This document shows positions 5,645-26,477 of a DNA stretch of 64,000 nt, one piece after another. The notes beneath the pieces are model-generated. The model saw nothing but the letters and a program-made list of their open reading frames with translations, made no database searches and was not told the origin of the DNA. Positions within the stretch are counted from its first letter, which is position 1, and each line of letters starts with the position of its first letter. Source of the stretch: an uncultured bacterium. GTDB taxonomy: Bacteria; Fermentibacterota; Fermentibacteria; Fermentibacterales; JCC-6. The DNA is taken from positions 16,535-80,534 of the forward strand of contig CAZRXU010000001.1 in the NCBI GenBank assembly GCA_964604135.1, given 5' to 3'. A program made the translations under genes and the position numbers.

Positions 5645-5662
5645 CTGCACAGGAGGGTTATT

Positions 5663-5860
5663 TTGGGTCGTATTGGAACCACAGAGCTTGTGCTGATTCT
5701 TGTGGTGCTTCTTCTTCTTTTCGGGGCAAAGAGGATTCCCGACATTGCCAGGGCAGTTGGAAGATCCATGAGTCAGTTCAAGAAGGGGTTGAAAGACGTT
5801 GATATTGAGTCAGATGAAATTGGCAGGGAAGGCAAAAATAAAGAGCAGAGCGAGGAGTAA
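5663..5860 (+). CDS. tatA: Sec-independent protein translocase TatA/E
   Basis: 65 aa. N-terminal GRIGTTELVLILVVLLLLFGAKRIPDIARAVGRS is the canonical TatA TM helix plus amphipathic helix. Apparent TTG start. Confidence 0.85.
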   Translation: MGRIGTTELVLILVVLLLLFGAKRIPDIARAVGRSMSQFKKGLKDVDIESDEIGREGKNKEQSEE

Positions 5861-5866
5861 CACTTT

Positions 5867-7899: not shown

Positions 7900-7933
7900 T
7901 CGTTCTTACAAGAAAATCAGGAGTTTTGTATCC

Positions 7934-10129: not shown

Positions 10130-10998
10130 TACTGGAGTCTTTCAGAGATGAACTTTCCTACGGCAGAGGGCTTTCTCCACTCACAGTCAAGGCTTACCTT
10201 ACTCAGATGACGGATTTTGCTGTTACCGGAGGATCCTTCGCAGATGGGTTTGATGTTTCCAGGATGCGGGAGTATCTCATGAGGCGTGCCTCTGCCGGTA
10301 TGTCTCCTGGCAGCATTGCAAGAATGGTGAGCTGTTTTCACACCTTTTCCAGATGGCTTGTGGAGACCGGTCGTTCTGAAGTTGACCACGGTGAGCTGCT
10401 CAGGGCTCCAAGAGTACCCAGAAGGCTTCCAGGGTTTCTGGGCGTCAGTGAGGTTAAAAGCGTTTTGAACGCATATGATGTTTCCACCACAATAGGTGTA
10501 CGCAACAGAGCAGTGGTTGAACTTCTTTACGGTGCGGGTTTGAGGGCAGCCGAAGCTTCATCTCTTATACTTCAGAACACAAGTGTTGCCGCAGGTACTG
10601 TGAAGGTTATGGGAAAAGGCAGAAGAGAAAGAATTGTTCCAATTCCAGTTGGAACATCAGAGTATATTGAGAAATGGATTCATAGAAGAAAAGAATTTAC
10701 AGCTGGTGATGATCCTGGAACTCTTTTCATAAGTGTCAGAGGTCGGAAACTTGACCCCAGAGATATACGGCGTATTGTTTCTGCTGGTGTTAACGGTGCA
10801 GCCAGAGCTGCAGGGGCGACTCCTCACACCTTCAGGCACAGTTTTGCCACACATCTTCTTAACGAGGGAGCAGATATCAGAACGGTTCAGGAACTGCTGG
10901 GGCATGCCGGGATAGGAACAACGCAGATATATACGCATCTTACAACGGAAAAACTAAAAGGTGTTTACATGAAAACACATCCCAGGGGGAAGAAGTGA
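10108..10998 (+). CDS. Tyrosine site-specific recombinase XerC/XerD family
   Basis: N-terminal SAM-like domain. C-terminal catalytic R...HxxR...Y motifs (HTFRHSFATHLL, LLGHAGIGTTQIYTHL). Confidence 0.88.
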   Translation: MQEEDRLILESFRDELSYGRGLSPLTVKAYLTQMTDFAVTGGSFADGFDVSRMREYLMRRASAGMSPGSIARMVSCFHTFSRWLVETGRSEVDHGELLRAPRVPRRLPGFLGVSEVKSVLNAYDVSTTIGVRNRAVVELLYGAGLRAAEASSLILQNTSVAAGTVKVMGKGRRERIVPIPVGTSEYIEKWIHRRKEFTAGDDPGTLFISVRGRKLDPRDIRRIVSAGVNGAARAAGATPHTFRHSFATHLLNEGADIRTVQELLGHAGIGTTQIYTHLTTEKLKGVYMKTHPRGKK

Positions 10999-13940
10999 AT
11001 ATCAGAAGTGCATTTACCGCAGACAGGCTTGTTGCACTGGCTGCAGCCATGGCCGCTTTCATCGTTTATACTGTTACACTGGCGCCATCCGTCAGCTTCT
11101 GGGACAGTGGAGAGTACATTACCTGCTCATGGGTTGCAGGGATTCCACACCCGCCGGGAGTACCCTTCTTTGTTCTCCTGGGAAGAGTAAGCACTTTACT
11201 GTTCAGTTTCATCCCTTCCATCGCGGCAAGGGTTAACCTTATGTGCGCGATTGCGGGAACTGTAACCATTGGTTTGGTGGCGAGGCTGATTCAGAGGTGG
11301 AGCATAAGGCTGGGGTTCGAACCGTGGCTTTACAGGCCGGTCTCCGTTGCAGGAGCACTTATGGCAGCTTTCAGCTACACAGTGTGGAGAAACAACAATG
11401 CAACTGAGACCTACGCCATGGCAGCCCTTCTTTCACTTCTTATTCTGTGGGTTTTTGATCTGTGGATAGAAAGAAGACTGCACGGAAAACCGGCAGGTCG
11501 TCAGCTGCTTCTTACCGGTTACCTGATGACGCTTGCAATCGGCAACCATCTCAGTGCTCTTATAGTCACTCTTCCGATAGTGGCCATGTACGTTCTGTAC
11601 GCCATCAGGAAGAAGGCCTTCGAGTGGAGATCACCAGGGTTTCCTGTGATGTTCCTGGGCCTTATGGTTCTTGCTTTCAGTATTCATCTCTATATGCCTG
11701 TTCGTGCCATACAGAACCCCGAGATTAACGAGACAAACCCCTCTGTATGGACAGAATTCAAGGAAGCTATTGAAAGAAAGCAGTATGGTCAGGTTTCCAT
11801 ATTCAGCAGAAAAGGGCCATTTAAGGATCAGCTTGGCCTGTTCGCCGAGTACCTGTCATGGCAGGTGGGAAGACCGGAAGCATGGACAGATGCATTTGGT
11901 ACTTCTGGCGGTGTGGTCTGGGCATTCCTCTGGATGGGGATGGCCGTTCTTGCAGTTACAGGTCTTGTGGTTATGGGAAAAAGGCGTCCGGATCTTTTGG
12001 TTCTTGTAGGATTGTCTTTTATCATGGCTAGTTTCGCCTTTGTGGTGTATCTGAATTTTAAGACAGGTCCCGAGGGTACATCACTGGGTGAAGTCCGCGA
12101 GAGAGATTACTTTTTCGGAGCATCTTTTATCTTCTTTGCCGTTCTTTCAATGACAGGGCTGGGTTCGTTGTTTGCTTCGGTAAAAAGCAGGTTTGCAAAG
12201 AATGCAGCATGGGCAATGGTTGTTTTTCCCATGATATCTCTGGGAATGAACTGGCATCACTGTGACCGTTCAGGCGATTATGCTGCACGGGATTATGGTA
12301 TCAATCTGCTTCAGTCATGTCCGGAAAATGCCGTGATAATCACCAATGGAGACAACGACACCTTTCCACTGTGGTTTGCCCAGGGGGTGCTTGAAGTTCG
12401 CCGTGATGTGATTATCTCCAACTTAAGCCTTATGAATACAAGGTGGTACGTGAAGCAGCTTGTCGCGAAAGATCCTGATCTTCTCAGCTATTCACAGGAA
12501 ACAATAGACCACATGCAGCCTGTGTTCGTCTGGGGACCCAATTTCTTTCATGTTTCATCGGACGGGTTGCCTGTTACAGGCGAATATGACAGGCAGGTGC
12601 TTGACGATACATTCAATGGCCAATGGCCGTGGGTGTTGAATGACGGCAACACAAGCATTCCTGTGCCATCAATGGGAAGAGGAAACCAGGGTTCAGTTCC
12701 AATGCAGGATCTTCTGCTTATAGACATGCTTAGAAACAGAAGCATTCACGGCAGGGAAGTGATGATCGCCGGAACTGTTTCCGGGGAGAACCGAAGCTAT
12801 GTTGAGAACTACCTTCAGATGCAGGGAATTGCTTTCAGGGTAATGCACGAGCCTGTCCGTGAGTTTGTAAACACCGATCTGGGATGGACCCTTGCAGACA
12901 ACTTACTTACCACAGGCCTTGCCGACCCTTCCGTTTACAAGGATGATCAGGCGGTTCAGATCGCCAGAAACTATGTAAGTGCCTATAATCGTCTCGCATA
13001 TCAGTTCATGGCTGAGGGCAACACGGAAATGGTTGGTGTGTGCCTGGACAGGTCAGAAACTTTGTTTGCGGCAATGCCGGAGGAGTGGCTCAGCATTATG
13101 TACAGCTTCGTTCTACTGAAGGCGAGGTATATTCACGGCAAAGATGGAGCCGACGCTGCAATAGAATATATGCAGCAGGCAACAGCGCACATGGACAGTA
13201 TGGCAGTTGAATACAACAATCCGTCCGCGGCTGCTGCAGCATCTCAGCTGCTGTCTATGTCCAGCGAGTTTGATCAGGAGTCAGCGTTTGACGGAGTAAT
13301 TGATTTCATAAGTGATGGTTCTCCTGCCCAGGAATGGATACGCATAGAGAAATATCTTTCATTCGGAAACTACATTGCCGCCCGGGAACATCTGGAGAAT
13401 CTTCAGACGGATTGGGGTTCGGAATACCAGACAGTTCTCGATCTTATGGGGCAGACGGTTGACCAGTACACCATATACTGCCCTGTGACCACAGGTCTTA
13501 GCATGCTCGACACCGCACTTGCATTCGTTTTCAACCACACCGATCAGGAAAGCTCAGCACTGGAATGGAAACAGGATATAACAGCCGCATCCATAGCAGT
13601 TGAAATGGCTGGGCTTGCCGCCAGAGGAAGTGTTATGGCGGCAGTTTCACTGGGAAGCATTATGGTTCCCCAGATGAAGACAGACAGAGAAGCACAGTTG
13701 ATCACTGATCTGTGTGATAAGTTTGTTTCCAATCCTGATCACGCAAAGGAGATGGCTCTGTGGTTTCTTCTTTCCACCGAAACATTTTCATCGGAAGCAA
13801 GAGCGGTGAGTCTTGCCGACGGCGGCTACGCAGGTCTTGCCTATGCTGTTCTTGTAAACGATCTTGAAATCGGTGAAGAATATGCACTATCCCTGGATAT
13901 AACAGGGAATACCCTGGCTCATCTGCTGGAGGCGCAATGA
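10995..13940 (+). CDS. DUF2723-family (TMEM260-like) polytopic membrane protein, putative GT-C glycosyltransferase, with large C-terminal helical-repeat region
   Basis: 981 aa. N-terminal LAPSVSFWDSGEYITCSWVAGIPHPPGVPFFVLLGRV matches the DUF2723 signature. ~10 TM helices followed by ~500 aa of soluble helical repeats. Confidence 0.7.
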   Translation: MNIRSAFTADRLVALAAAMAAFIVYTVTLAPSVSFWDSGEYITCSWVAGIPHPPGVPFFVLLGRVSTLLFSFIPSIAARVNLMCAIAGTVTIGLVARLIQRWSIRLGFEPWLYRPVSVAGALMAAFSYTVWRNNNATETYAMAALLSLLILWVFDLWIERRLHGKPAGRQLLLTGYLMTLAIGNHLSALIVTLPIVAMYVLYAIRKKAFEWRSPGFPVMFLGLMVLAFSIHLYMPVRAIQNPEINETNPSVWTEFKEAIERKQYGQVSIFSRKGPFKDQLGLFAEYLSWQVGRPEAWTDAFGTSGGVVWAFLWMGMAVLAVTGLVVMGKRRPDLLVLVGLSFIMASFAFVVYLNFKTGPEGTSLGEVRERDYFFGASFIFFAVLSMTGLGSLFASVKSRFAKNAAWAMVVFPMISLGMNWHHCDRSGDYAARDYGINLLQSCPENAVIITNGDNDTFPLWFAQGVLEVRRDVIISNLSLMNTRWYVKQLVAKDPDLLSYSQETIDHMQPVFVWGPNFFHVSSDGLPVTGEYDRQVLDDTFNGQWPWVLNDGNTSIPVPSMGRGNQGSVPMQDLLLIDMLRNRSIHGREVMIAGTVSGENRSYVENYLQMQGIAFRVMHEPVREFVNTDLGWTLADNLLTTGLADPSVYKDDQAVQIARNYVSAYNRLAYQFMAEGNTEMVGVCLDRSETLFAAMPEEWLSIMYSFVLLKARYIHGKDGADAAIEYMQQATAHMDSMAVEYNNPSAAAAASQLLSMSSEFDQESAFDGVIDFISDGSPAQEWIRIEKYLSFGNYIAAREHLENLQTDWGSEYQTVLDLMGQTVDQYTIYCPVTTGLSMLDTALAFVFNHTDQESSALEWKQDITAASIAVEMAGLAARGSVMAAVSLGSIMVPQMKTDREAQLITDLCDKFVSNPDHAKEMALWFLLSTETFSSEARAVSLADGGYAGLAYAVLVNDLEIGEEYALSLDITGNTLAHLLEAQ

Positions 13941-14485
13941 ACATTAAATCAACCACGGTTATCGGTATTGTAAGGAACGGTAAAGCTGCAATGGCGGCTG
14001 ATGGTCAGGTTACACTTGGTGATACCATTATGAAGATGAGTGCCCGAAAACTGAGAAAACTCAGTGGGGGAACCGTTCTCGTTGGTTTTTCCGGTGCGGG
14101 AGCAGACGCTTTTGCGCTTGTGGAAAGGCTGGAAGAGAAACTTGAAGCTTTTCGCGGTAATCTTCCAAGGGCGTCAATGGAGCTTGCACGGGAGTGGAGA
14201 GCCGACAAGTATCTCCGGGAACTCAACGCTATGATTGCAGCTGTAGACAGCCATCATGCCCTTGTAATAGGGGGTTCCGGAGAGGTGGTTGAGTCACCTG
14301 ACGGCATAGTTTCGGTTGGTTCAGGGTCTCCCTACGCAATTGCTGCCGCAAGATCTCTTGTTAAGCACACCAGAATGGGCCCTCTGAAAATAGCAAGAGA
14401 AGCAATTGTGATAGCAAGCGAAATCTGTATTTACACTGGTGGCGCGATCATGTCGGAGGAAATATGCAAACCCGGAAAATCATGA
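13937..14485 (+). CDS. hslV: ATP-dependent protease subunit HslV
   Basis: N-terminal TTVIGIVRNGKAAMAADGQVTLG places the Thr nucleophile after Met as in HslV. Length 182 aa. Confidence 0.92.
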   Translation: MNIKSTTVIGIVRNGKAAMAADGQVTLGDTIMKMSARKLRKLSGGTVLVGFSGAGADAFALVERLEEKLEAFRGNLPRASMELAREWRADKYLRELNAMIAAVDSHHALVIGGSGEVVESPDGIVSVGSGSPYAIAAARSLVKHTRMGPLKIAREAIVIASEICIYTGGAIMSEEICKPGKS

Positions 14486-15783
14486 CACCTGCGGAAACTG
14501 TTGCCTGGCTCAACAGGTTTGTTATCGGTCAGGACAAAGCGAAAAGAACAGTCGCGATCGCTTTACGGAACAGATACAGAAGGAAGCTTGTTGAAGAACC
14601 CATGCAGTCGGAAATTTACCCGAGTAACCTGATAATGATGGGCCCAACAGGGGTAGGTAAAACAGAAATTGCCAGAAGAATGGCAAGTCTTGTGGGAGCA
14701 CCTTTCGTTAAGGTTGAAGCAACAAAGTACACGGAAACTGGTTACGTTGGCAGAGATGTTGAAGGAATAATACGCGATCTTGTGCGTTCTGCAGTCAACC
14801 TTGCCACCGGTAAGGCCAGGGAGGAGAAAAAGACTGAAGCCGAGGCAAGGGTAGAGAAGAAACTGCTGGATGCCCTTTCAAGAACCGGTATTGAGTTTGG
14901 TTCTACCGCAGAACTCGAGGGTCTTTTAAAGAATGGCAGACTGGATGATGTTGAGATAGAGCTTACAATCACAGAAAAAGCCATCGGTGTTGAGGTGTTC
15001 CCCATGATACCCGGTCAGGGATTTGACAGCCAGATAAACGACCAGATGAAAAACATGCTTGACAAGGTTATTGGAAAGCGCAGGAAGAAGATCACACTGA
15101 GTGTAGCCGATGCCAGGAACAAACTGTTCGATGACGAAATAGCCAGAATCCTTGACGGAGGCGATCACATTCAGGAAGGGCTTCGTCTAGCACAGGAAGA
15201 GGGTATTGTTTTTGTTGATGAGATCGACAAAATAATTGGTTCGGAAGGCGGAAGCGGGCCTGATGTGTCTAGGATGGGTGTTCAGAGGGACCTTCTTCCC
15301 CTGGTTGAGGGATGCACGGTTTCAACCAGATATGGTCCTGTAAAAACAGATCATATCCTGTTTATAGCAGCGGGAGCTTTTCATGGAAGCAGCCCGGCAG
15401 ACTTGATCCCGGAGCTTCAGGGAAGATTTCCACTGCGGGTTTCACTGGATCCACTTTCAGAGGAAGACCTTTTTCGTATTCTTACAGAACCGGAGGGCTG
15501 TATTCTTGATCAGTACACCAGGCTGCTTGAGGCGGACGATTTGAAACTTGTGGTGGAAGAGCAGGCAAAGAAAAACATAGCTGCAACTGCAAGGTATCTG
15601 AATGAAGAAAAGGAAGACATCGGGGCCAGGAGACTTCGCTCGGTTCTTTCATTTCTGTTCGATGAGTATCTTTTCGGCGCGCCGGATCTCATTCGGGGCA
15701 GAGTCAGGCTCACAGGAAAGAAGGCGAAGGGCAGGCTGGCGGTACTGGTTGAAAGAAAAGACGAAGAGGGTTATATTCTTTAG
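14482..15783 (+). CDS. hslU: ATP-dependent protease ATPase subunit HslU
   Basis: MTPAETVAWLNRFVIGQDKAK N-terminus. Walker A GPTGVGKTEIARR. Intermediate I-domain. ATGA overlap with the hslV stop. The track's upstream ATG at 14464 is an alternative start. Confidence 0.92.
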   Translation: MTPAETVAWLNRFVIGQDKAKRTVAIALRNRYRRKLVEEPMQSEIYPSNLIMMGPTGVGKTEIARRMASLVGAPFVKVEATKYTETGYVGRDVEGIIRDLVRSAVNLATGKAREEKKTEAEARVEKKLLDALSRTGIEFGSTAELEGLLKNGRLDDVEIELTITEKAIGVEVFPMIPGQGFDSQINDQMKNMLDKVIGKRRKKITLSVADARNKLFDDEIARILDGGDHIQEGLRLAQEEGIVFVDEIDKIIGSEGGSGPDVSRMGVQRDLLPLVEGCTVSTRYGPVKTDHILFIAAGAFHGSSPADLIPELQGRFPLRVSLDPLSEEDLFRILTEPEGCILDQYTRLLEADDLKLVVEEQAKKNIAATARYLNEEKEDIGARRLRSVLSFLFDEYLFGAPDLIRGRVRLTGKKAKGRLAVLVERKDEEGYIL

Positions 15784-15818
15784 GATTACTGCGGGTTGCT
15801 TTACGAATAGGGGGAGGG

Positions 15819-16397
15819 ATGCACAGGTCAGGTAATGAGGTTGCATACAAAATAGTCTACTACGGTCCCGGTCTTTCCGGGAAGACTACCAATCTCAGGG
15901 GTATACGCGACATCATCGCTCCTGAAAACAGAGGAAGGCTTGTAACTCTTTGCACCAGGTGCGAGAGAACAGTGTTTTTCGACTTTCTTCCTGTTAATTT
16001 CGCCAGGATCGGAGACATGAAGGTTAAGCTCCATCTGTATTCTGTACCCGGTCAGGCGTACTATGCTCTCAGCAGAAGGGTAATCCTCGATGGTATAGAC
16101 GGGGTGGTTTTCGTTGCCGACAGCCAGAAAGAGAGGGCGGAGGCGAATATCAGCACAATAGATGACCTGGAGCACAACCTGAAAAGCTACGGCCTCGACA
16201 TGTCCATGATTCCCATGGTTCTGCAGTTTAACAAGCGCGACCTTCCCGGTATAATGTCTACCGCCAGAATGAATGAAGAATTAAACAGATTCCAGTGGCC
16301 CACTGTAGAGTCGGTTGCCATTGGCGGAAGTGGTCCTGCGGAAACCCTCAAGATTATTGCTACCCAGATGGCCAAGCGCCATGCACGCACAGGCTGA
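15819..16397 (+). CDS. mglA: MglA-family Ras-like small GTPase (paralog 2)
   Basis: YYGPGLSGKTTN P-loop. RTVFFDFLPV switch I. SVPGQ switch II. NKRD motif. ~45% identical to paralog 1 by eye. Confidence 0.88.
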   Translation: MHRSGNEVAYKIVYYGPGLSGKTTNLRGIRDIIAPENRGRLVTLCTRCERTVFFDFLPVNFARIGDMKVKLHLYSVPGQAYYALSRRVILDGIDGVVFVADSQKERAEANISTIDDLEHNLKSYGLDMSMIPMVLQFNKRDLPGIMSTARMNEELNRFQWPTVESVAIGGSGPAETLKIIATQMAKRHARTG

Positions 16398-18516
16398 CAG
16401 CAGGTCAAAACTCCGCACAGCGCTGCTTCTGCTGTTTCTGGTAGCAGGCGGTTTTGTTTTCCGGAGTGTATTTGCCACATCAGTCATGCCGCCTCCTGCC
16501 AGAATGCAGGGGGAGACAACCCAGGCGTACAGATATACAAAGATGGTTTCAGACGGCGATGGTATACCTACTCTGGATACGCTGGTTATGCGCCCACAGG
16601 GTTTGATAACGGCAGAGAATTCTATTTTTGAAGAGTATATAGCAGGGGGAATACACCGGGTAACAGGTGGTGATTTTGATTCGTTCCTGCATTTGTTCTG
16701 TCTTCTGTTTCCGCTTCTGGTGGTTCCTGTAATCTTCTACTGGATGCGAAGTTCGAACTTCTCCAGTCAGGAGTCTTCCACAGGTGCAGCACTGTACGCT
16801 GTGTTTCTACCGGCACTTCTTCGGGCCAGGGGGGAAAGTTTTTACCGTGAAACAGTGGCACTGCCGCTGATAGTACTCACTTTTGCCCTTATAGATATGA
16901 GCAGCGGTAAAAAAGAGTCTTTGAAATACTCCGTTGCCGCGGCTCTGACACTGTTCCTGGCTCTGGCATCCTGGAAGGTAACAGCGTTTGTATCCTTCTT
17001 TGTTTTCGTATGGATGGCCTTCAAAAGGCCAGGGCTTCGTACTGTTATTCCGCTTGCTGCAAGTCAGTTTCTTGCCTCTGTTGTTCTAAGCCATATGCGT
17101 CACGACGGAGCTGTTCTTTCACCAGCCGTTCTTATGGCTGCTGCAGCTGTGGTTTCAGCGATGTACCGAAGCAGAATTGTTCCATGGGCAGGTCTGGCGG
17201 TTTCTTCAGCTTCCGGTTTCTTTTTCAGGTCTTCCTCGGGCGGGCACGTAGCTGCGGTGATTGCTGCAAAGCTGAAATTCCTGTTCAGTCATCCAGAAAA
17301 TCCTGCTTTGCTTTCAGATGATGCCCGGCTTTTCTGGGTAAGTGGCTACACTTCTCCGTCATCGGGGCAGATCCTTCTTCTGTTCGGCTTTGCATTTGTT
17401 GCGGCTGTTCTGGGGTGGAAGCGGTTCAGAGAGAAAACAGGGCAGTCACTGATGCTGTTCCTGATACCTCTTTCAGTTGCCGGATACCTGTTTTTTGACA
17501 GGCTCATGGTTGTTCTAGCCATCGGGATCATTCCTCTAGTGGTTGCTGCCTGCAGGAATCGCAGGTGGGCTCTTCCGGTTGTTCTTACAGTATTTGGACT
17601 GCAGACCATGTACGCCCCGGGGATAGCAGGTGTGCTTTCAAGAGCAGGTCTGGAATTTGAAGATTCGTCATCTCTTCTAACCGAGAACGAGCTTACCGGG
17701 CTTATCAGGTGGGCGAAAGACAACCACGGAACAGTGCTTTCATTCTGGCATATTTCAGGTCTGCTTTCCGCTTACGCGAACATGCCTGTGGTTACCCACA
17801 CTTTTTTTGAAAACGCAGAAAACCGGGAAACCATCATAGAGTATGCCAGAAGAAGCTTTGGAACCGAGCAGGAAATGATAGACTTCATGGAAGAAAAGGG
17901 TGCAGACTACCTGATTTACCAGGCCGACTTTGTTTTCGACAGATCACCGCAAGGTCTTGTGTATCTGGCCGGTCTTACAGAGATTCCCGATGGTTGTCTC
18001 GCCCTTCGACTTCACTACTATCCCCAGTCTCTTGAGACACTTGGAATAGTCTGGCAGGGACCTTCCGTAAGGGTGTTCGGTATAAACGAAAGCGCGGAAG
18101 AATTGCCAAGGCAGCCGCTGTGGGAAGTTCGCTACGCACCTTTTCTGCATGACAGTGAAATGGCAAACGCAGTTGTGAATTTACCTGTGGAAACGGCTAT
18201 CTATCTTGCAGATCAGGGGATGGAAACAGGTAATATCCAGAAGATATCAGCGGCACTGCTGCTGTTGTCAGGATCTCCCGATGAGGTGCCATCCGATGCT
18301 GCAGTTGGTCTTCTGCAAGAGCTTCTTATGGCTCATCTGGACGGGCACTACTCAATAGAAGATCTGGAAGATGATTTTGTAACGTACCTGCGCGTCTGGG
18401 GGCCGGATCCTCAACTTCGTTTTGACCTGGTAAGGCTGCTTCGAAACAGCAGCCTTTTTGACAGGGCACAGTATCACATGGAAATAATTGAAAGAATGGG
18501 AACGCAGAACCTATGA
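16381..18516 (+). CDS. MglA-coupled large polytopic membrane protein with C-terminal soluble domain (possible GT-C-like fold)
   Basis: Start (ATG 16381) overlaps the mglA-2 3' end by ~17 nt; the track's upstream start at 16315 lies inside mglA-2. At least 10 predicted TM helices over the first ~430 aa, then a ~280 aa soluble domain. No recognisable catalytic motif. A FWHISG stretch faintly recalls the WWDYG motif of oligosaccharyltransferases, which is weak evidence only. Confidence 0.6.
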   Translation: MHAQADSRSKLRTALLLLFLVAGGFVFRSVFATSVMPPPARMQGETTQAYRYTKMVSDGDGIPTLDTLVMRPQGLITAENSIFEEYIAGGIHRVTGGDFDSFLHLFCLLFPLLVVPVIFYWMRSSNFSSQESSTGAALYAVFLPALLRARGESFYRETVALPLIVLTFALIDMSSGKKESLKYSVAAALTLFLALASWKVTAFVSFFVFVWMAFKRPGLRTVIPLAASQFLASVVLSHMRHDGAVLSPAVLMAAAAVVSAMYRSRIVPWAGLAVSSASGFFFRSSSGGHVAAVIAAKLKFLFSHPENPALLSDDARLFWVSGYTSPSSGQILLLFGFAFVAAVLGWKRFREKTGQSLMLFLIPLSVAGYLFFDRLMVVLAIGIIPLVVAACRNRRWALPVVLTVFGLQTMYAPGIAGVLSRAGLEFEDSSSLLTENELTGLIRWAKDNHGTVLSFWHISGLLSAYANMPVVTHTFFENAENRETIIEYARRSFGTEQEMIDFMEEKGADYLIYQADFVFDRSPQGLVYLAGLTEIPDGCLALRLHYYPQSLETLGIVWQGPSVRVFGINESAEELPRQPLWEVRYAPFLHDSEMANAVVNLPVETAIYLADQGMETGNIQKISAALLLLSGSPDEVPSDAAVGLLQELLMAHLDGHYSIEDLEDDFVTYLRVWGPDPQLRFDLVRLLRNSSLFDRAQYHMEIIERMGTQNL

Positions 18517-19316
18517 AATTTACGAAAATGAGCGGTGCCGGGAATGATTTCATTATGGTTGACAACCGTGATGGCAGCCTTTCCCGTGTGCTTGGTCGTG
18601 AAAGAATTGCAGAGTTGTGCAGGAGAGGTCTTTCTGTGGGAGCGGACGGGCTTATTGAAATAAGAGAAGATCCAGTGCACGCTTTTGCCATGAAGTACTA
18701 CAATTCAGATGGTGGAGCAGCAGACATGTGCGGCAACGGAGCAAGATGTATCTGCCGGTTTGCAGCAGAGCTGGGAATGGTGGAGACCGGAGTTGAGTTT
18801 ACCTTTGCCAGCGACGCTGGAATTCATAAAGGCAGTATCACAGGAGACAGGGAAGCAAGAATCTGGATGACTGAACCGATTCTTCACTACCTGGAGAAGG
18901 CAATTGATGTTGCCGACGGTATTGTTATCACTACCGGTTTTGCAGATACAGGTGTACCTCACGCAGTTGTTTTCAGAGACAGCATTGAAGACGGTTCTTT
19001 CGAGAAGTACGCCAGTGTAATAAGATCGCTGGATGAATTCGGGCAGGAGGGCGCGAATGTAAACTGGGTCAGGGTTCAGAGAGACGGGTCAATGTCTATC
19101 AGAACATTTGAGAGGGGCGTAGAAGGTGAAACTCTTGCCTGCGGAACCGGTGCTGTTGCATGCGCTCTTGTGGCCTCTGAAAGATTTGATTCTGTAACTC
19201 TACCTGTTAGAATAGCAGTGAAGAGCGGGCTTCTTCTTACCGTGGGAGAAGACAGCAGCGGCTGGTGGCTTCAGGGTGAAGCCGGTATAATCTACAGAGC
19301 GGAGACAATTTCTTGA
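18513..19316 (+). CDS. dapF: Diaminopimelate epimerase
   Basis: MSGAGNDFIMVDNRDG N-terminus with the first catalytic Cys motif CGNGARC. Second catalytic Cys region ETLACGTGAVA. ATGA overlap with the upstream gene. Confidence 0.92.
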   Translation: MKFTKMSGAGNDFIMVDNRDGSLSRVLGRERIAELCRRGLSVGADGLIEIREDPVHAFAMKYYNSDGGAADMCGNGARCICRFAAELGMVETGVEFTFASDAGIHKGSITGDREARIWMTEPILHYLEKAIDVADGIVITTGFADTGVPHAVVFRDSIEDGSFEKYASVIRSLDEFGQEGANVNWVRVQRDGSMSIRTFERGVEGETLACGTGAVACALVASERFDSVTLPVRIAVKSGLLLTVGEDSSGWWLQGEAGIIYRAETIS

Positions 19317-19321
19317 CAAGA

Positions 19322-19397
19322 GCGGGCATAACTCAGTTGGCAGAGTGTCAGCCTCCCATGCTGAATGTCGCGGGTTCGAAACCCGTTGCCCGCTCCA
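19322..19397 (+). tRNA. tRNA-Gly (anticodon CCC)
   Basis: Manual cloverleaf. Acceptor GCGGGCA/TGCCCGC. D-arm ACTC-AGTTGGCAG-AGTG. Anticodon stem TCAGC/GCTGA with loop CTCCCAT giving anticodon CCC. T-arm GCGGG-TTCGAAA-CCCGT. Discriminator T plus encoded CCA. Confidence 0.85.
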
Positions 19398-19413
19398 GAT
19401 TATCTGTGGAATC

Positions 19414-20007
19414 ATGATGTTTCTCCTTGTGCTGCTTCTTGCAGATCCCCTGTCATCAAACGAAAGCTTGTGGCTTCTGCGTGCAGGGTGTGCAGCGGGC
19501 GGCAATCCTCCAGATATGGCTTCATACCTGTATACAAGTGTTAATACTATTTCGGATATTTCACTTGCAGTTGCAACAGATGGAATCAAAGGGGGAGATG
19601 CTTCAATGCTCGTTCCGCTTGTGGCTTCTCTTGTTTCCCGCGGGGAGACAGAGCTGGCGGAAACCTGCTGGAGTCTTCGGGGAATGGAATTGCCTGCAAC
19701 CAGAAACGATCTGCTCGATGTTCTTGCGTGGTTCGGCAGGTATGAACTGTACCATGAAATGGCGTCGAATCCCTTAATTCCATCCGACATGGAAGGGAAA
19801 ATGCACAGTGATCAGTGTGGGGCTGTCTGTGCTCTGGGATGGATGAGAACCAGAAGCGACGGGATGTTTCACGGTGATGATGCTGTTTCTCCTCTTGATA
19901 TAAAGGTGCTTTCTGCGTATTTCCCATCTATCGATGCATCTGCGGAGTACATAACCACCGCTGAACTTGAGAGTGTTTTTCAGTCTTTGGGCGGAGGTTC
20001 CCGGTGA
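19414..20007 (+). CDS. Hypothetical protein (hydrophobic N-terminus, probably exported)
   Basis: The ORF track starts at 19345 and overlaps the tRNA; the internal ATG at 19414 (MMFLLVLLL...) is a more plausible start. No recognisable domain. Confidence 0.4.
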   Translation: MMFLLVLLLADPLSSNESLWLLRAGCAAGGNPPDMASYLYTSVNTISDISLAVATDGIKGGDASMLVPLVASLVSRGETELAETCWSLRGMELPATRNDLLDVLAWFGRYELYHEMASNPLIPSDMEGKMHSDQCGAVCALGWMRTRSDGMFHGDDAVSPLDIKVLSAYFPSIDASAEYITTAELESVFQSLGGGSR

Positions 20008-20633
20008 AAATCAGCGAAGCTCAGCAGAGACACCTTGAACAGTTTTCTCAAACGATAGAGATGATAAAAAGAACACAGGGGCAGCTTCCTTTCGCTCCTG
20101 CCATGGTCTCATGGGTTCGTATTATTATTCTTCCATTCAGTATCTGGGCTGGCTGGTATGCTCACTTCACCGTTATGTTCTGGTTGTGTCTTGTGGCGGC
20201 TTCAAGCGATTACATTGATGGCTGGCTGGCGAGAAAACTTAAGAAATCCAGTACTCCGGGTAAAACACTTGATATTCTGGCAGATAAACTGTTTCTCTCT
20301 GTAATGCTGATTTTTCTTGCCCGACTCGGTGTGGCAAACACCCTGCTGGCCCTTATCCCCGCGTGGTATCACATAGCTGTGGTTCTTGGTCTGCTGGTTG
20401 TTTCCTGGAGCATAAAAATACCGGTTGTAGCTATTACCACAAGTGAAAGGCTTACAATTATTCTTAGTTACGTAATGGTTCTTACAGCCGCTGGTGTGCT
20501 TGCTTATCCGGCGAAGAGCATATTTGTGAAATTGTTGTGGGTTGCACAGATACTTACGCCGATTGCTGCTATACTTGGCGTTGTGAGTTACTTCAGGTTC
20601 AGCAGAAGACTGATACAGAGGTACCTGCAATGA
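20004..20633 (+). CDS. CDP-alcohol phosphatidyltransferase family membrane protein
   Basis: Signature D-G-x2-A-R-x8-G-x3-D-x3-D present as SDYIDGWLARKLKKSSTPGKTLDILADKL. Multiple TM helices. 4 nt overlap with the upstream gene. Confidence 0.85.
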   Translation: MKISEAQQRHLEQFSQTIEMIKRTQGQLPFAPAMVSWVRIIILPFSIWAGWYAHFTVMFWLCLVAASSDYIDGWLARKLKKSSTPGKTLDILADKLFLSVMLIFLARLGVANTLLALIPAWYHIAVVLGLLVVSWSIKIPVVAITTSERLTIILSYVMVLTAAGVLAYPAKSIFVKLLWVAQILTPIAAILGVVSYFRFSRRLIQRYLQ

Positions 20634-21298
20634 TCGCTGTTCTGCTTTTTATTGTGTGCTTCTCTCCGCTTGAACTGGAGCTGGCTGGAAAACTGCCGGA
20701 AGCAGGTGCTGCCTGGCAGGAAGACGGCAGCCTGTCAGGGCAGGTCAGGGTGATGGGAAGGCTTGTGGAGGAAGCAATATACGCAGGTGACGCCAGACGG
20801 GCATTTTTGCTGGCCGGTGAGCTGGGAAGCATCTGCAACGACGCAGATATTCAGCAGTTCTGGATGGCAAGGATTGCATGGGCTTCAGGTCTTCCTGTGT
20901 TGGCTGCGGAAGAGCTGAAGCAGATGAACCCGTCGGATCCGTGGCTTCTTCACAGAGCTCTCGGATTGTCCGCATTGTTTACAGAAAACGGTGAGGTAGC
21001 CATACGAGAGCTCACAATGTCTGTTGCCGCGGCTTCCACGGCAAGAAAGGCCTTCTGGAGCGGTATAGATCTGTGTTCCGCTTATTTGAATGCTGGAAGG
21101 TATTCTGATGCCCTGCAGCTGTCCCGTCTGATAAAAGTTCGTTACCCTGGAGATGCCATGGGCGATGTGATGTACGGGCTGTGCCTACAGGTTTCAGGGC
21201 AGTTCGGAGAGTCTTCAAGAGTATTAAATTCTATAGATATGGATAATCCGGCAGCAGTTTCTCTTGCCCGGAGTATTATGGAAGGATTTGAGCAGTGA
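20630..21298 (+). CDS. Hypothetical protein, helical/TPR-like
   Basis: ATGA overlap with the CDP-alcohol phosphatidyltransferase stop. N-terminal hydrophobic segment, alpha-helical repeat character. Track ORF 20537 start rejected because it overlaps the upstream gene. Confidence 0.45.
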   Translation: MIAVLLFIVCFSPLELELAGKLPEAGAAWQEDGSLSGQVRVMGRLVEEAIYAGDARRAFLLAGELGSICNDADIQQFWMARIAWASGLPVLAAEELKQMNPSDPWLLHRALGLSALFTENGEVAIRELTMSVAAASTARKAFWSGIDLCSAYLNAGRYSDALQLSRLIKVRYPGDAMGDVMYGLCLQVSGQFGESSRVLNSIDMDNPAAVSLARSIMEGFEQ

Positions 21299-22188
21299 AA
21301 TTTATAAGAGATCTCTTTGGTAAACGAAGAGTAACCAGGGTTTCTTCCAACTGGAGCGATTTCAATTTCCCGTCTGATGTTACGGAACCAGAAGCCGTTG
21401 GAGTGTTTTCTTCTTCAGATATTTCCTCTGCGTGGTCGGCTGTTTACATGGCCAGTGTACTTCAGAATGTGTATCCCTCTATTCCGGTTCACTTTGTGAC
21501 TCACAGCAGTGTGGCCGAGCTCGCCGGATTCCTGCCGGTAACACCGCAGATGCACATATATACCGGTGACCCTGGATCAGTTGATCCCGAGATTCCAGAG
21601 GGTGTTCTTATGTTTTCTCCTCAGCCTGAAGACAGTTTGCTGCGTTTTGTGGAAAAAGCATCTCCTCTTGCGTGTGTTTCAACACAAAAAAACCCGGCTG
21701 TGAATATAATTGTTAAAATAGGATCTGATACTGTGTTACCGCATAGCATCTACGAACTGATGAAGGTTCTCAAAATGGAAGCAGATACAGCGTGGAAACC
21801 GGTAGTGCCGGGTGTTCTGGCCGAGAAGGCTTCCTCTGTTCTGTCCCCTGTGTCTCACCGCACACTGCCGTACATTCTGGCCACTGAAGCTGCAGCAAAT
21901 GTACTGGAGAAAAAACGGGCAGAAGTTCCACTTAAGATTGTTCTTGTAGACGGAAAGACTACTGTTATTCCACCGGAGACAAGTGTCGGTCTGCTGGCGG
22001 CAATGGTTGCCGGTGCTTCCGCTATGGTCACAACGGATCGGAATCTGTGGATACATGCAAGAGCTCTGGGAATACCGGTGATAGGGCTGGACAGAAAGGG
22101 AGTATTCAGCGGATGGGGAGGCGAGCCTGCACCAGGAGACACAATGTTTCTGGAGCAGTGGGCAACCCTTATCAGAGTTGGCTGGTAA
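21295..22188 (+). CDS. Hypothetical protein, divergent GT9 (heptosyltransferase)-like C-terminal region
   Basis: C-terminal VGLLAAMVAGASAMVTTDRNLWIHARALGIPVIGL resembles the GT9 donor-binding region (GNDSGPMHLAAALGxPxVALFG). The N-terminal half is not recognisable. 4 nt overlap with the upstream gene. Confidence 0.4.
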   Translation: MKFIRDLFGKRRVTRVSSNWSDFNFPSDVTEPEAVGVFSSSDISSAWSAVYMASVLQNVYPSIPVHFVTHSSVAELAGFLPVTPQMHIYTGDPGSVDPEIPEGVLMFSPQPEDSLLRFVEKASPLACVSTQKNPAVNIIVKIGSDTVLPHSIYELMKVLKMEADTAWKPVVPGVLAEKASSVLSPVSHRTLPYILATEAAANVLEKKRAEVPLKIVLVDGKTTVIPPETSVGLLAAMVAGASAMVTTDRNLWIHARALGIPVIGLDRKGVFSGWGGEPAPGDTMFLEQWATLIRVGW

Positions 22189-22193
22189 CTTCG

Positions 22194-22595
22194 ATGAAAA
22201 AGGTAATTACATACGGAACATTCGACCTGTTTCACATAGGTCATCTTAACATGTTGAAACGGGCAAAAGCTCTGGGTGACTACCTTGTGGTGGCTGTTTC
22301 CACAGATGAATTCAACACCGGAAAACACAAACAGTGTGTTTATCCATACTCTCACAGAGCGCAGATAGTTGAAGCTATTCGTTGCGTGGACGAGGTGATA
22401 CCGGAGAACAGCTGGGAGCAGAAAATTGATGATGTCAGGAAACACTCCATAGGTATTTTTGTTATAGGGGAAGACTGGGCAGGAAAATTTGATTTTCTTA
22501 AGGAATACTGCGAAGTAGTTTACCTGCCCAGAACGAAGAGCATTTCAACAACATCCATCAGGAACACGGTAAAGAACGGTAAAACGATTATCTGA
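22194..22595 (+). CDS. tagD: Glycerol-3-phosphate cytidylyltransferase (TagD/TarD family)
   Basis: MKKVITYGTFDLFHIGHLNMLKRAKALGDYLVVAVSTDEF is the HxGH cytidylyltransferase motif of the TagD family. ~133 aa. Internal start chosen 6 nt after the upstream stop. Confidence 0.88.
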   Translation: MKKVITYGTFDLFHIGHLNMLKRAKALGDYLVVAVSTDEFNTGKHKQCVYPYSHRAQIVEAIRCVDEVIPENSWEQKIDDVRKHSIGIFVIGEDWAGKFDFLKEYCEVVYLPRTKSISTTSIRNTVKNGKTII

Positions 22596-23635
22596 TGAAA
22601 CTGCTGTTCTACATTTCAAAACTCTACTCTGTTCCAGTTGTGCAGCCTCTGGTGAACGAGGCAAAGAGCAGAGAGGTGGAAGTCGCATTTTTCGTCAGTT
22701 CAAAGGTAAAGAAAGACCTTCCCCATGAAATATCGGATCTTCCGGTATTTACAAACTTGAACAGTACCAAAGCTTTCAAGCCCAACTTTGTTTTGTGCCC
22801 GGGCAATTTCGTGGATTTCCGCTTGTCGGGAATAAAAGTTGAGCTTTTTCACGGCATTGGAGTAGAGAAGCCTTCACACTACAAAATCAGGCACTTTTTC
22901 GATATGTACCTTACCTCAGGGCCGGTTGTGACCGAAAGGTTTGCACAGATGCAGAACAGGTACAGATACTTCAGAACTGTGGAAACCGGGTGGCCGAAGA
23001 TAGATCATATTCTTAAATACAACACCACAGACCTTAAAAAGAAGTACGATATACCTGCAGGCAAAAAGGTTATTCTTTATGCTCCCACGCACAGCAGAAC
23101 CATGGAGTCTGCGACTCTGCTTCTTCCTGAGATTGAAAAAACCATGGAGCCGGATGAGATATGGCTGTGCAAGCCACACGAATTCATGAGCAGATCTCTT
23201 GTAAACGGAATTGCAGACAAACAGCAGTTTCGCCTGATCACCGATTACGATATTACCCCATATCTTCATCTGGCAGATATGATGGTTTCTGACACTTCTT
23301 CTGTGGTCTACGAATTCATGGTTCTGGACAAGCCGGTTGTAACCTTCAGAACACTGGCAAGAAAAGACAAAGGTATCAACATACAGGAGCCCCGGGAGCT
23401 GAGGGCTGCACTGGACCGATCCTTTCTGAATCCTGATGAGTTCTCGAGCAACCGGAAGCGTCATCTTGATGAGGTAAATCCCAGATTAGACGGAAACATA
23501 TCAAAGAACATCATTGATCTTCTTTCCACAGTAGACCCTGAGGAACCAGTGGGAACGAGGCGGAAACCGCTGAATCTGTACCGGAAACTTCAGATTATCT
23601 ATCACAGCCATTTCCGTAAGGGATATATGCGTTAA
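22595..23635 (+). CDS. CDP-glycerol glycerophosphotransferase (TagF/TagB family), paralog 1
   Basis: ILYAPTHS ... DMMVSDTSSVVYEFMVLDKPVV motifs typical of the TagF family. 1 nt overlap with the tagD stop. Confidence 0.85.
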   Translation: MKLLFYISKLYSVPVVQPLVNEAKSREVEVAFFVSSKVKKDLPHEISDLPVFTNLNSTKAFKPNFVLCPGNFVDFRLSGIKVELFHGIGVEKPSHYKIRHFFDMYLTSGPVVTERFAQMQNRYRYFRTVETGWPKIDHILKYNTTDLKKKYDIPAGKKVILYAPTHSRTMESATLLLPEIEKTMEPDEIWLCKPHEFMSRSLVNGIADKQQFRLITDYDITPYLHLADMMVSDTSSVVYEFMVLDKPVVTFRTLARKDKGINIQEPRELRAALDRSFLNPDEFSSNRKRHLDEVNPRLDGNISKNIIDLLSTVDPEEPVGTRRKPLNLYRKLQIIYHSHFRKGYMR

Positions 23636-23749
23636 ATATTTGTAATATGAGCTGGAACAAACGAACGCTGTCGATGCTATTACCTCAGGTGTTACCTATA
23701 CGCCATATCAAGAGTAACAGTGGATTCAAACCGCCTGGCTGGAGGAAAA

Positions 23750-24061
23750 ATGAAGAGAGCGTCAACAGCGATAGTAGCAGTACTGGTACAAGTGTTTCTG
23801 ATCCTGACCGCCTGTGGTAATGACACAACAGGGATAACGCCTCCGCATAACCCTATGGATGAAGGCCAGGAAGCTATCGATAACTACGTGCACGCCTACA
23901 ACACCTTGGATGCTGACCTTCTTACAGTAACTCTGGACAGTGGATTCCTGCACCATCTGCTGGAGGAGAACTGGGCTGACTACAACGGAGACGGAGAAAT
24001 TGACAACACCTGGGGCTACAGCCTGGAACTCTCATTTGCAGAGGGGTACTTCTCCGCATAA
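23750..24061 (+). CDS. Small lipoprotein, hypothetical
   Basis: Signal peptide with lipobox LILTAC (MKRASTAIVAVLVQVFLILTACGND). Acidic mature part. Start chosen at the internal ATG. Confidence 0.5.
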   Translation: MKRASTAIVAVLVQVFLILTACGNDTTGITPPHNPMDEGQEAIDNYVHAYNTLDADLLTVTLDSGFLHHLLEENWADYNGDGEIDNTWGYSLELSFAEGYFSA

Positions 24062-24483
24062 TACGATTGCTGCGAATTTTCTTTAGCAGGAGAGGAGCAG
24101 TATATCTGGCCCGATGACCAATCCGGGGAATCAATTGCATATCCCAGAAGCTATGTGCTGAAATTCTACAACACCGGCCAATCAGGGGTTACAGAAACAG
24201 GAAGCTTTATTCTTGTCTGCAAACCTGACAGCTCCGGAATCTGGCACCTCACACACCTGATCGATCAGGATTCCCTGTAGAGCAGAGGGGCGTGTTCATT
24301 AGAACAATTATGTCCCTCCCCGGCTTTCCCGGGGGACCGAAATAGTTCGATAACTCCGGGATTGATGTGAATACTCCCTTTCAAGAACCGCTCGTTGCGG
24401 GCTGAAAGGGAGTGACCGTGCAAGTTACAAAGTGTTTAAACATTCGGTTACTTTGGTAAATGAATGCCGCCTTCAGGCGGCTC

Positions 24484-25136: not shown

Positions 25137-26477
25137 CTATTCACTGTCAAGCTCCAAATGTACATTTTCGTTCTCAGTTACCAGCCAGCAGTGTCGATTC
25201 GAATGGAACAGTGTTTTTTTGGCAAAATTTGCTGCCTTGCATCCACCACGGCAGACAGGTAACCACTCGCATTGCCTGCAGTATCCACTAATATCACTGA
25301 TTTGCAGACTGCGAAAGTAATTGAGGAATCTGGAGTATTTCCAGATATAACTAAATTTCTGGTTTTTTACACTGTCTGCAGTTACGCCTTCGAAGTAGTG
25401 GCAGGGAAGCACCTCACCAATTGGGGTAACCGTACAATAGTTAAGTGCACCCCCGCATTCACTCGGTTGTGTTTGGTCAATTCTGTAGTGGGGTGGCTCA
25501 GAGAATGTATGCTCAAATTCAAGGGCTGCAATCTCAAAGGGCCAATTGCCCCTCTGCTGCAGCAGGTATGTGTATACTTCTTTTACTCTTTCAGGGGGAA
25601 GCTCCAGTGTGCTGTTACTCTTACCGCGTCCGTTGGGAATAAACGGAATCAGTCTGAATCTCTTTGCTCCAAGCCGTTGAACCAGTTTCAGCATATTCGG
25701 AATATCATCAACATTATGCATCGAGATTAGAGTTCCTATAGTAATCTCATGTCCTGTTCTGACCAGTATTTCAATACCCCTAATCGCTTGATTAAAAGCT
25801 ATTTCGCTGCCTCTGACTCTTGAATAAATCTCAGAAGTGGATCCATCCAGACTAACCTGGATATTTGCCTGAAGTATTTTCAGCTCATCTGCAATTACTG
25901 GTGTGATGAGAGTACCGTTTGTAGCGAGGCTTATGGCCAGATTATTCCTCCTTGCTGCATAGGCAAGCTGGAAAAAATCTTTGCGAATAAGAGGCTCGCC
26001 TCCGCTGAAGGTGATTTCGCGCACTCGCATGTCTCTCCACTCGTTCAGTAGAGCAAGCCCCTCCTGAGTTGACAATTCATTCTCATGCTTTTTCTCAGCA
26101 GAAACAACGCAGTGAAGGCACCTCAAATTACACTCATTTGTTATTTCCCAGAAGATTGAGTCAGGAGGAGGGGCATCAAACCAGCGCATCTTTTCTTTTT
26201 TTATCCAGAGAAGCCCACTGCTTTCAAAATCATTAACGAAGCTTATTGTACGGGTTCTTATCTCATCCTCAGATGACATAAAGAGATTACATAGTTTAGC
26301 TATGATCTCTTCAAGAGACCTGCTGCCGTTGCTCAATTTAAGCAGACATGCTGCAGCCGCATTTATTTCAATATTTTCTTCACTGTAGGGCGATAGGATT
26401 CTAACTTGTTCATCTCTCCCGTGAATCATCTTGAATGGAAAGAAGGGGTAGCACATTAAACACCTCCGATAGGGCAC
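25137..26477 (-). CDS. Radical SAM/SPASM-domain peptide-modifying enzyme with N-terminal PqqD-like RiPP recognition element
   Basis: CNLRCLHC CxxxCxxC radical SAM cluster motif at aa 116-123. GGEP-like FSGGEPL. C-terminal Cys-rich SPASM region (CGGALNYC...PCHY...GYCRQCEWLPVCRGGCKA). Residues ~30-90 (INAAAACLLKLSNGSRSLEEIIAKL...VNDFESSGLLW) match the PqqD/RRE pattern. GTG start. Confidence 0.85.
   Translation of the reverse strand: MPYRRCLMCYPFFPFKMIHGRDEQVRILSPYSEENIEINAAAACLLKLSNGSRSLEEIIAKLCNLFMSSEDEIRTRTISFVNDFESSGLLWIKKEKMRWFDAPPPDSIFWEITNECNLRCLHCVVSAEKKHENELSTQEGLALLNEWRDMRVREITFSGGEPLIRKDFFQLAYAARRNNLAISLATNGTLITPVIADELKILQANIQVSLDGSTSEIYSRVRGSEIAFNQAIRGIEILVRTGHEITIGTLISMHNVDDIPNMLKLVQRLGAKRFRLIPFIPNGRGKSNSTLELPPERVKEVYTYLLQQRGNWPFEIAALEFEHTFSEPPHYRIDQTQPSECGGALNYCTVTPIGEVLPCHYFEGVTADSVKNQKFSYIWKYSRFLNYFRSLQISDISGYCRQCEWLPVCRGGCKAANFAKKTLFHSNRHCWLVTENENVHLELDSE

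Follow-up and report, generated by a model that had tools for sequence, protein, structure and literature searches.

An MglA paralog and its membrane-protein neighbour

The sequence analysed here is a 64-kb stretch of contig CAZRXU010000001.1, from an uncultured bacterium of the Fermentibacterota, and is referred to below as the window. It contains two genes for small GTPases of the MglA family. The second of these, mglA-2, is followed directly by a gene coding for a 711-aa polytopic membrane protein with the features of a DPY19-class glycosyltransferase of the GT-C type, and this gene pair is the subject of the present analysis. All the genes around the pair lie on the forward strand and are densely packed (Table 1). 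A preliminary description of this DNA had pointed to a complete second mglA reading frame, recognisable by the segment YYGPGLSGKTTN and by the motifs RTVFFDFLPV and SVPGQ, and to an overlap between its 3' end and the start of the membrane-protein gene. The reading frame is present as described and the overlap amounts to 17 nt, with the mglA-2 stop codon at 16395-16397. The open reading frame of the membrane protein begins at a TTG codon (16315), and the start conserved among its orthologs is the ATG at 16381, which yields the 711-aa product. The distance between the two mglA genes, given as 8.7 kb, has to be corrected to 9.35 kb from end to start (6469 to 15819), or about 9.95 kb from start to start.

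Searches with MglA-2 against the sequences of the PDB returned MglA proteins as their sole matches, including those of Myxococcus xanthus (4.4e-54, ungapped over residues 4-183) and Thermus thermophilus (3.5e-49). These Group-1 proteins (PDB 5ymx, 6h17 and 3t12) are about 50% identical to MglA-2 and share with it the P-loop, the Arg finger, the Asp of the FFDF segment, an Asp-less xVPGQ and the NKRD motif. The criteria for Group-1 MglA, among them an intrinsic Arg finger adjoining the G2 Thr, have been established by Wuichet and Sogaard-Andersen (2014; PMC4316618). In MglA-2 the motifs read GPGLSGKT (G1, GxxxxGK[ST]), ERT followed by FFDF (G2, with the intrinsic Arg finger beside the Thr), SVPGQ (G3, with the catalytic Gln) and NKRD (G4, [NT]KxD). 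The P-loop, the [ED]RT.FFDF segment and NKRD are conserved in 60/60 orthologs and SVPGQ in 59 of them, in agreement with the proposal that this MglA is complete and retains all its GTPase residues.

MglA-2 departs from canonical MglA in reading SVPGQ instead of TVPGQ, in an N-terminus that is three residues shorter, in a G5 segment of the form VA(I/L)GGxGP and in a basic (K/R)RHA(R) tail. The Thr-to-Ser change in G3 is conservative and occurs in both Fermentibacteria paralogs, MglA-1 and MglA-2; in M. xanthus the equivalent MglA-T78S protein is stable and retains most of its function (PMC3000849). Homologs of MglA-2 form a compact clade of at least 64% identity, all from Fermentibacteria, beyond which the next matches are generic MglA proteins (from Thermovibrio, for example) at 52-55%. 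A neighbour-joining tree, the phylogenetic check that had been suggested for the two copies, places MglA-2 in a clade of its own and groups MglA-1 with canonical MglA, to which the latter is also closer by score (213-217 bits against MglA structures, versus 186 for MglA-2). The motifs, the gap in the homolog search and the tree therefore indicate that MglA-2 represents an orphan clade within Group-1 MglA that is restricted to the Fermentibacterota and keeps every catalytic motif, and that it is probably catalytically competent.

An adjoining MglB gene is typical of the MglA family, if not obligatory, and orphans exist. The preliminary description had noted no MglB-like gene in the vicinity, and this extends to the whole window: Pfam scans of its small open reading frames gave no Robl_LC7 match, and a genuine MglB used as query found nothing in its six-frame open reading frames (best E = 4.1), nor in those of 64 related loci. 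The query was taken from the locus of the closest MglA-2 relative outside the Fermentibacteria (P0383, 55% identity; locus L073), where a classical mglB (Robl_LC7)-mglA pair (5453-6591) sits among translation and DNA-repair genes and provides a positive control for MglB detection. MglA-1 likewise has no adjoining MglB, and there are no motility genes near mglA-2. Orphan MglA proteins not encoded beside MglB, 59 of which have been listed, including SofG of M. xanthus and the MglA of Bdellovibrio, are likewise of the Group-1 type; outside one fragmented genome a GT-C gene always lies 3' of mglA-2, a neighbourhood that this survey of MglA does not describe (PMC4316618). MglA-2 keeps a Gly at the position equivalent to Gly12 of Ras (GPGLSGKT). 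It has no N- or C-terminal extensions, which SofG carries.

The best matches of the membrane protein (100%, 89% and 86% identity) are all from Candidatus Fermentibacteria, and a genome scan identified 61 species-level loci, all of them in Fermentibacteria (also named Fermentibacteraceae, Sabulitectum, Aegiribacteria or Hyd24-12). Two metagenome contigs bring the loci holding both genes to 63. In 62/63 of these mglA-2 lies directly upstream of the GT-C gene, the exception being a fragmented metagenome-assembled genome, so the synteny of the membrane gene with mglA-2, as had been asked of the pair, holds across the Fermentibacteria. The two genes overlap by 17-23 nt in 41 loci and are separated by 13-76 nt in most of the others, with one gap of 210 nt in addition to the fragmented genome. 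The same loci preserve equally well the order of a block of about 16 kb, which runs from mglA-1 to a gene of 297 aa (21295-22188) and includes topA, xerC, a TMEM260-like GT-C gene, hslVU and dapF. Almost all junctions of this operon in the window have overlaps, of 4-22 nt (topA/xerC, 22 nt; xerC/TMEM260, 4 nt; TMEM260/hslV, 4 nt; hslV/hslU, 22 nt; GT-C/dapF, 4 nt). Median ortholog identity is 77% for mglA-2, 47% for the DPY19-like GT-C, 58% for topA and 55% for dapF.

Fold, motifs and relatives of the membrane protein

An AlphaFold2 model of the 711-aa protein, built on an alignment of 28 orthologs (pLDDT 88.3, pTM 0.85), contains 13 transmembrane (TM) helices followed by a soluble C-terminal part of 290 aa, in keeping with the at least 10 helices and the tail of about 280 aa anticipated from the reading frame. 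The soluble part comprises an alpha/beta dome and a tail of eight helices (aa 591-711), and a profile built from Fermentibacteria sequences only (A1) weakly matches a consensus TPR protein (0.0017). The predicted orientation obeys the positive-inside rule, with Lys and Arg making up 30% of the cytoplasmic and 10% of the periplasmic loop residues. The cytoplasmic loops total 27 aa, eight of them Lys or Arg, and contain no invariant position (mean conservation 0.42), versus 51 invariant positions among the 129 aa of the periplasmic loops; all the strong loop conservation is thus periplasmic.

The faint GT-C-like features first noted in this protein are substantiated by structural and sequence comparisons. 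Foldseek searches of the PDB with the model returned STT3 subunits as the top matches (1.4e-13 to 1e-11, the best with a TM-score of 0.62) and Caenorhabditis elegans DPY19 (CeDPY19; 7zlg, 7zlh and 7zli) at about 3e-11, with TM-scores of 0.61-0.67 and the lowest rmsd, about 6 A. Both STT3 and DPY19 align over the full length, in 680-730 columns, and lesser matches include AglB, PglB, ArnT (2.6e-4) and AftD (3.7e-4). At the sequence level the order is reversed: among the GT-C proteins of the PDB, dpy-19 is the best match of profiles in which distant homologs are included (4.4e-23 and 6.2e-18), ahead of STT3 sequences with the same kind of profile (1.5e-19 and 1.4e-18). Profile A1 does not reach DPY19 among PDB sequences. 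Against the Pfam Dpy19 family (PF10034) the window protein scores below threshold (15.2 bits versus a gathering cut-off of 27.2 bits; E = 0.0061), and one ortholog (P0083) carries a precomputed PF10034 annotation.

A segment QGE[TA]TQ, about ten residues after TM1 in periplasmic loop EL1, contains a Glu (E45) in 58/58 orthologs, and the corresponding column is E or D in 12/12 diverse sequences (alignment A4). EL2 carries Rx6YRE in all 58 orthologs (R148-ARGESF-YRE157 in the window protein), with the spacing of Rx6LRE, and a strict EL6 pattern, DR(L/M)x9P, is found in 52/58. A hidden Markov model (HMM) alignment to CeDPY19 (7zlg_A) pairs R148 with Arg211, R374 with Arg471, V377 with Leu474, F476 with Tyr578, E477 with Glu579 and R482 with Arg584. 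In CeDPY19, Glu71 is the catalytic base, Arg211 binds phosphate and Leu474 determines sequon specificity (PMC10154233), and the Rx6LRE motif in EL2 and the EL6 Arg followed by a Pro in TM12 have been described as DPY19 hallmarks, alongside the definition of the acidic EL2 motifs of STT3 and PglB (PMC6801728). The WWDYG motif is present in 0/58 orthologs, and EL2, reading Rx6YRE, lacks the acidic metal-binding pair (DxD, Rx6DNE).

Fold, motifs and topology of the modelled protein hence indicate that it is a DPY19-class GT-C_A glycosyltransferase. Like C. elegans DPY-19 and human DPY19L1-4 (CAZy GT98, PF10034; PDB 7zlg-7zlj), it combines a 13-TM GT-C_A domain with a luminal or periplasmic dome, and shares with them the Rx6(L/Y)RE of EL2, the EL6 Arg with the TM12 Pro and the equivalents of Glu579 and Arg584. 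It differs in being only about 14% identical, in having Phe476 in place of the DPY19 'peptide sensor' Tyr578, in a single conserved Glu in EL1 (QGETTQ) where DPY19 has ExE, and in its extra TPR-like tail. C-mannosylation has been described from metazoa and alveolata, whereas this protein is bacterial. STT3, AglB and PglB resemble it in their 13-TM topology and in having conserved arginines in EL2 and EL6. Since both WWDYG and the acidic EL2 DxD/DNE are missing, a metal-dependent N-glycosylation mechanism is unlikely. The DPY19-type EL2, devoid of a metal-binding acidic pair, and the TPR tail instead suggest transfer of a single sugar to protein: the donor is most likely a polyprenyl-monophosphate sugar, used without metal, and the acceptor, going by the tail and the nearest relatives, is probably a periplasmic protein.

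Within a broader family of bacterial DPY19-TPR proteins, the Fermentibacteria orthologs are a divergent branch whose TPR tail is degenerate. Other members mostly pass the Pfam Dpy19 threshold and carry canonical TPR, and their genes are often found in neighbourhoods of envelope glycosylation. With the ortholog alignment, an exhaustive profile search returned 865 representatives of 50%-identity clusters at E <= 0.001, with 320 below 1e-30. Ten distant representatives were tested against PF10034; all of them match it (23-85 bits), nine above the gathering cut-off, and most have canonical C-terminal TPR. These distant proteins are tied to the family profile at 1e-45 to 1e-100, with both membrane domain and dome homologous. 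A word-indexed homolog search with an alignment of distant members (A3) gave mostly TPR proteins and six true family members. Alignments of the distant members contain no conserved run of 7-10 columns, and the genomic context of the distant genes was therefore sampled one locus at a time in eight loci (L064-L071). In four to five of these the DPY19-like gene adjoins a GT-C gene of the PMT or PMT_2 type, an arrangement suggestive of protein-glycosylation enzymes that occur in pairs in several uncultured lineages.

Because bacterial members of PF10034 are already in the databases, one of them annotated by the Joint Genome Institute as 'Q-cell neuroblast polarisation', the family assignment is not itself new; as far as we found, its bacterial function is uncharacterised in the literature. 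[quoted passage not shown] In the literature consulted, DPY19-family GT-Cs are treated as eukaryotic, and the 865 clusters define a large bacterial branch, usually with TPR tails and often beside PMT-type GT-Cs. Our literature search found no paper that mentions both Fermentibacteria and MglA. The locus thus pairs an orphan MglA paralog with a bacterial DPY19-like GT-C of a divergent kind, in an arrangement specific to the phylum. In the Fermentibacteria the DPY19-like and TMEM260-like GT-C genes share one operon, which makes bacterial DPY19-type protein glycosylation directly testable.

Readings of the gene pair

The reading that we consider probable is that mglA-2 and the GT-C gene are two real genes of one conserved operon, an orphan MglA and a DPY19-class GT-C, whose adjacency reflects co-expression within an ancient operon of envelope and housekeeping functions. 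They would be co-transcribed and probably translationally coupled, like most neighbours in this operon. MglA-2 would act as a cytoplasmic GTP/GDP switch, presumably catalytically intact, and the GT-C, with its putative catalytic E45, R148-x6-YRE157 and R374...P385 facing the periplasm, would transfer its sugar on that side of the membrane. Any effect of MglA-2 on the GT-C would be indirect, for instance through control of the placement of envelope machinery.

Several observations weigh against this reading or temper parts of it. The pair is kept, with a 23-nt overlap, at the most divergent MglA-2 ortholog (64% identity; L072, a locus retrieved with MglA-2 as the seed). In four loci (L041, L047, L048 and L063) hslVU is absent from this position, and mglA-2 and the DPY19-like gene come straight after the TMEM260-like GT-C gene; since adjacency is kept there, the pair has withstood the single rearrangement observed. 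Neither the MglA-2 clade nor the GT-C orthogroup extends beyond the Fermentibacterota, and every sampled locus with one has the other, a pattern that a dedicated module would also produce. As regards the biochemical side, the donor and acceptor types suggested above are drawn from motifs, and the equivalence of E45 with Glu71 of CeDPY19 is likewise tentative, as the HMM alignment does not reach this residue. As a separate observation, mglA-2 is flanked by two GT-C genes in the four loci without hslVU, and TMEM260 represents a eukaryotic family of protein O-mannosyltransferases.

The observations on gene order and co-occurrence also favour a switch-effector module, in which GTP-bound MglA-2 would bind, recruit or gate the GT-C or its complex. 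Such a module would confine envelope protein glycosylation to certain places, such as a pole, or to certain times, and would make the GT-C a new class of MglA effector that replaces the MglB-coupled motility role. The near-universal adjacency with its frequent 17-23 nt overlaps, the persistence of the pair without hslVU and at 64% identity, and the matching phyletic ranges are all in line with it, as is the strong constraint on MglA-2; furthermore, the lack of a neighbouring MglB implies that the partners of MglA-2 must differ from the canonical arrangement. The GT-C, however, offers no conserved cytoplasmic surface for GTPase binding, all its invariant loop positions being on the periplasmic side, and MglA-2 must reside in the cytoplasm. 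No MglA or Arf-like gene was detected, by gene calls and tblastn, near any of the eight distant DPY19-like genes (L064-L071), within windows of 1.2-8 kb around them (5-8 kb for most; only 1.2 kb upstream in L069). Moreover, synteny is no weaker for the unrelated flanking genes topA, xerC, hslVU and dapF, and overlapping gene ends are a general feature of this operon. We regard a switch-effector module as unlikely, though far from negligible.

The preliminary description had gone further, presenting each MglA as 'wired' to a membrane-associated partner of its own. For MglA-2 this was not supported: what speaks for it is adjacency, within a 16-kb block that is conserved to the same degree. That MglA-2 regulates or physically contacts the GT-C thus stands as unproven and, because of the topology of the GT-C and the gene contexts of its distant relatives, as somewhat disfavoured. 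Gene order in the Fermentibacterota is so conserved at this locus that these data do not separate a dedicated module from co-expression. A mirror-tree or co-evolution comparison would not discriminate between them either, since the genes of the block are all inherited vertically together. A still more specific proposal, that MglA-2 is a cytoplasmic switch spatially gating a DPY19-type periplasmic protein glycosyltransferase which attaches C- or O-linked hexose to envelope proteins, appears quite improbable. Were it true, gating by MglA-2 would link cell polarity to protein glycosylation and extend DPY19-type chemistry to bacteria. In a field dominated by the MglA/MglB paradigm of motility and polarity, MglA-2 provides a concrete candidate for a non-motility MglA function, with gene order as the sole evidence of its link to the GT-C.

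A further alternative concerns the acceptor. The GT-C could modify an envelope lipid or polysaccharide in the manner of ArnT, Emb or AftD, acting on lipid A, the core of lipopolysaccharide (LPS) or a teichoic-like polymer, and MglA-2 would then be unrelated to it. Genes for LPS and polymer synthesis abound in the window, and ArnT and AftD are found among the weaker structural matches. The best structural and sequence relatives, in turn, are the protein-modifying STT3 and DPY19, and the protein ends in a TPR tail, which is canonical TPR in its distant homologs. TPR tails are typical of GT-Cs that recognise proteins, such as TMTC and the bacterial PMT_2-TPR proteins. On this evidence a lipid or polysaccharide acceptor is improbable. 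Finally, an oligosaccharyltransferase of the STT3/PglB/AglB type, transferring to Asn a glycan preassembled on a polyprenyl-diphosphate carrier, would account for the top Foldseek matches and for the STT3 matches of the sequence profiles, but is very improbable given the lack of WWDYG in every ortholog, an EL2 that reads YRE rather than an acidic DNE/DxD, the precedence of dpy-19 at the sequence level and of CeDPY19 by rmsd, and distant homologs that match Pfam Dpy19 and not STT3.

Neighbouring genes and other features of the window

Table 1. Coordinates of the mglA-2/GT-C pair, of the parts of the GT-C protein and of neighbouring features in the window.
Feature	Position	Strand	Remarks
mglA-1	5867-6469	+	200-aa MglA, context
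p476	6469-7899	+	476-aa gene product
topA	7856-10129	+	
xerC	10108-10998	+	
TMEM260-like (DUF2723) GT-C gene	10995-13940	+	981 aa; Pfam PF11028, 8.5e-36
hslV-hslU	13937-15783	+	in this genome, separates the TMEM260-like gene from mglA-2
mglA-2	15819-16397	+	192-aa orphan Group-1 MglA paralog
Overlap of mglA-2 3' end and GT-C ATG	16381-16397	+	17 nt, different frames
DPY19/STT3-class GT-C gene	16381-18516	+	711 aa, stop included
Membrane domain, aa 1-421	16381-17643	+	13 TM, N-terminus predicted cytoplasmic; DSSP of AlphaFold2 model
Long periplasmic loops EL1 (aa 36-98) and EL5 (aa 282-327)	within membrane domain		DSSP of model
EL1 with conserved acidic E45 (QGETTQ)	16486-16674	+	candidate catalytic base
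EL2 motif R148-x6-Y-R156-E157	16822-16851	+	HMM alignment to 7zlg_A
EL6/TM12: R374, V377, and P385 inside TM12	17500-17535	+	HMM alignment to 7zlg_A
Periplasmic alpha/beta dome, aa 422-590, including FFEN..NR	17644-18150	+	AlphaFold2 model and HMM alignment
C-terminal all-helical degenerate TPR-like tail, aa 591-711	18151-18513	+	predicted periplasmic; model
dapF	18513-19316	+	TIGR00652, 5.2e-62; start overlaps GT-C stop by 4 nt
tRNA-Gly(CCC)	19322-19397	+	6 nt 3' of dapF
CDP-alcohol phosphatidyltransferase, TPR protein (20537-21298) and more envelope genes	3' of tRNA-Gly(CCC)		
Cytidylyltransferase	22047-22595	+	
TagF-like CDP-glycerol glycerophosphotransferases (four)	22595-23635, 31012-32073, 32070-33170, 33163-34392	+	

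The window is dominated by envelope biogenesis, with genes for GT4 enzymes, a heptosyltransferase, a lipid A acyltransferase, LpxB, LpxK, KdtA, Ddl, DapF and a CDP-alcohol phosphatidyltransferase; the neighbourhood of the pair is thereby one of LPS, teichoic-like polymer and peptidoglycan synthesis. The presence of TagF-like genes in one window with lpxB, lpxK, kdtA and the heptosyltransferase and lipid A acyltransferase genes points to the synthesis of a teichoic-acid-like polymer in an LPS-bearing diderm. The preliminary description had also proposed a link to surface motility or to the type IX secretion system (T9SS). This finds no support in the window, in which no type IV pilus, gliding or T9SS-machinery gene was identified and two sub-threshold Por_Secre_tail matches are the sole T9SS-related hints. 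These matches lie in two encoded proteins that end in domains of the Ig/FlgD_ig/Por_Secre_tail kind, a ferredoxin-like product with 2x[4Fe-4S] (39263-39781, reverse strand) and a PQQ beta-propeller protein (57679-59367, forward strand).

The gene downstream of mglA-1, p476, has an ATG that overlaps the mglA-1 stop codon (ATGA) and is syntenic with mglA-1 throughout the phylum. Its product begins with a conserved domain of about 75 aa that resembles the C-terminal domain of ribosomal protein L7/L12 in 14/19 orthologs (narrowly below the Pfam cut-off, with a best E of 1.1e-5); the L7/L12 C-terminal domain is the GTPase-binding module of the ribosome. After this domain come an acidic linker, an invariant eight-Cys double zinc ribbon (C150-C188) and one TM helix, and a conserved domain of about 140 aa forms the C-terminus. 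Neither profile searches of PDB sequences nor Pfam detected a Roadblock fold in p476, which we consider a candidate partner of MglA-1 in place of MglB.

A scan of positions 5300-24300 for promoters and terminators returned 16 promoter-like sites versus 18.1 expected and 20 terminator-like sites versus 17.1, that is, chance level. Sigma-70-like hexamer pairs were seen upstream of mglA-2 (15749-15777, forward strand; TTGAAA-17-TATATT) and inside it, about 125 nt before the GT-C start (16228-16255, forward strand; TTAACA-16-TATAAT, 11/12 matches); as the whole scan is at chance level, neither is taken as evidence of a promoter. The tRNA-Gly(CCC) gene is overlapped by a mechanically called reading frame of a conserved gene (19345-20007), which implies that the true start of that gene lies further downstream. 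Elsewhere in the window, a radical-SAM/SPASM enzyme with a PqqD-like domain (25137-26477) adjoins an astacin-family metalloprotease (26658-28124), both on the reverse strand in a region of lower GC content (0.42-0.45). This pair may serve peptide maturation of the kind seen for ribosomally synthesised and post-translationally modified peptides.

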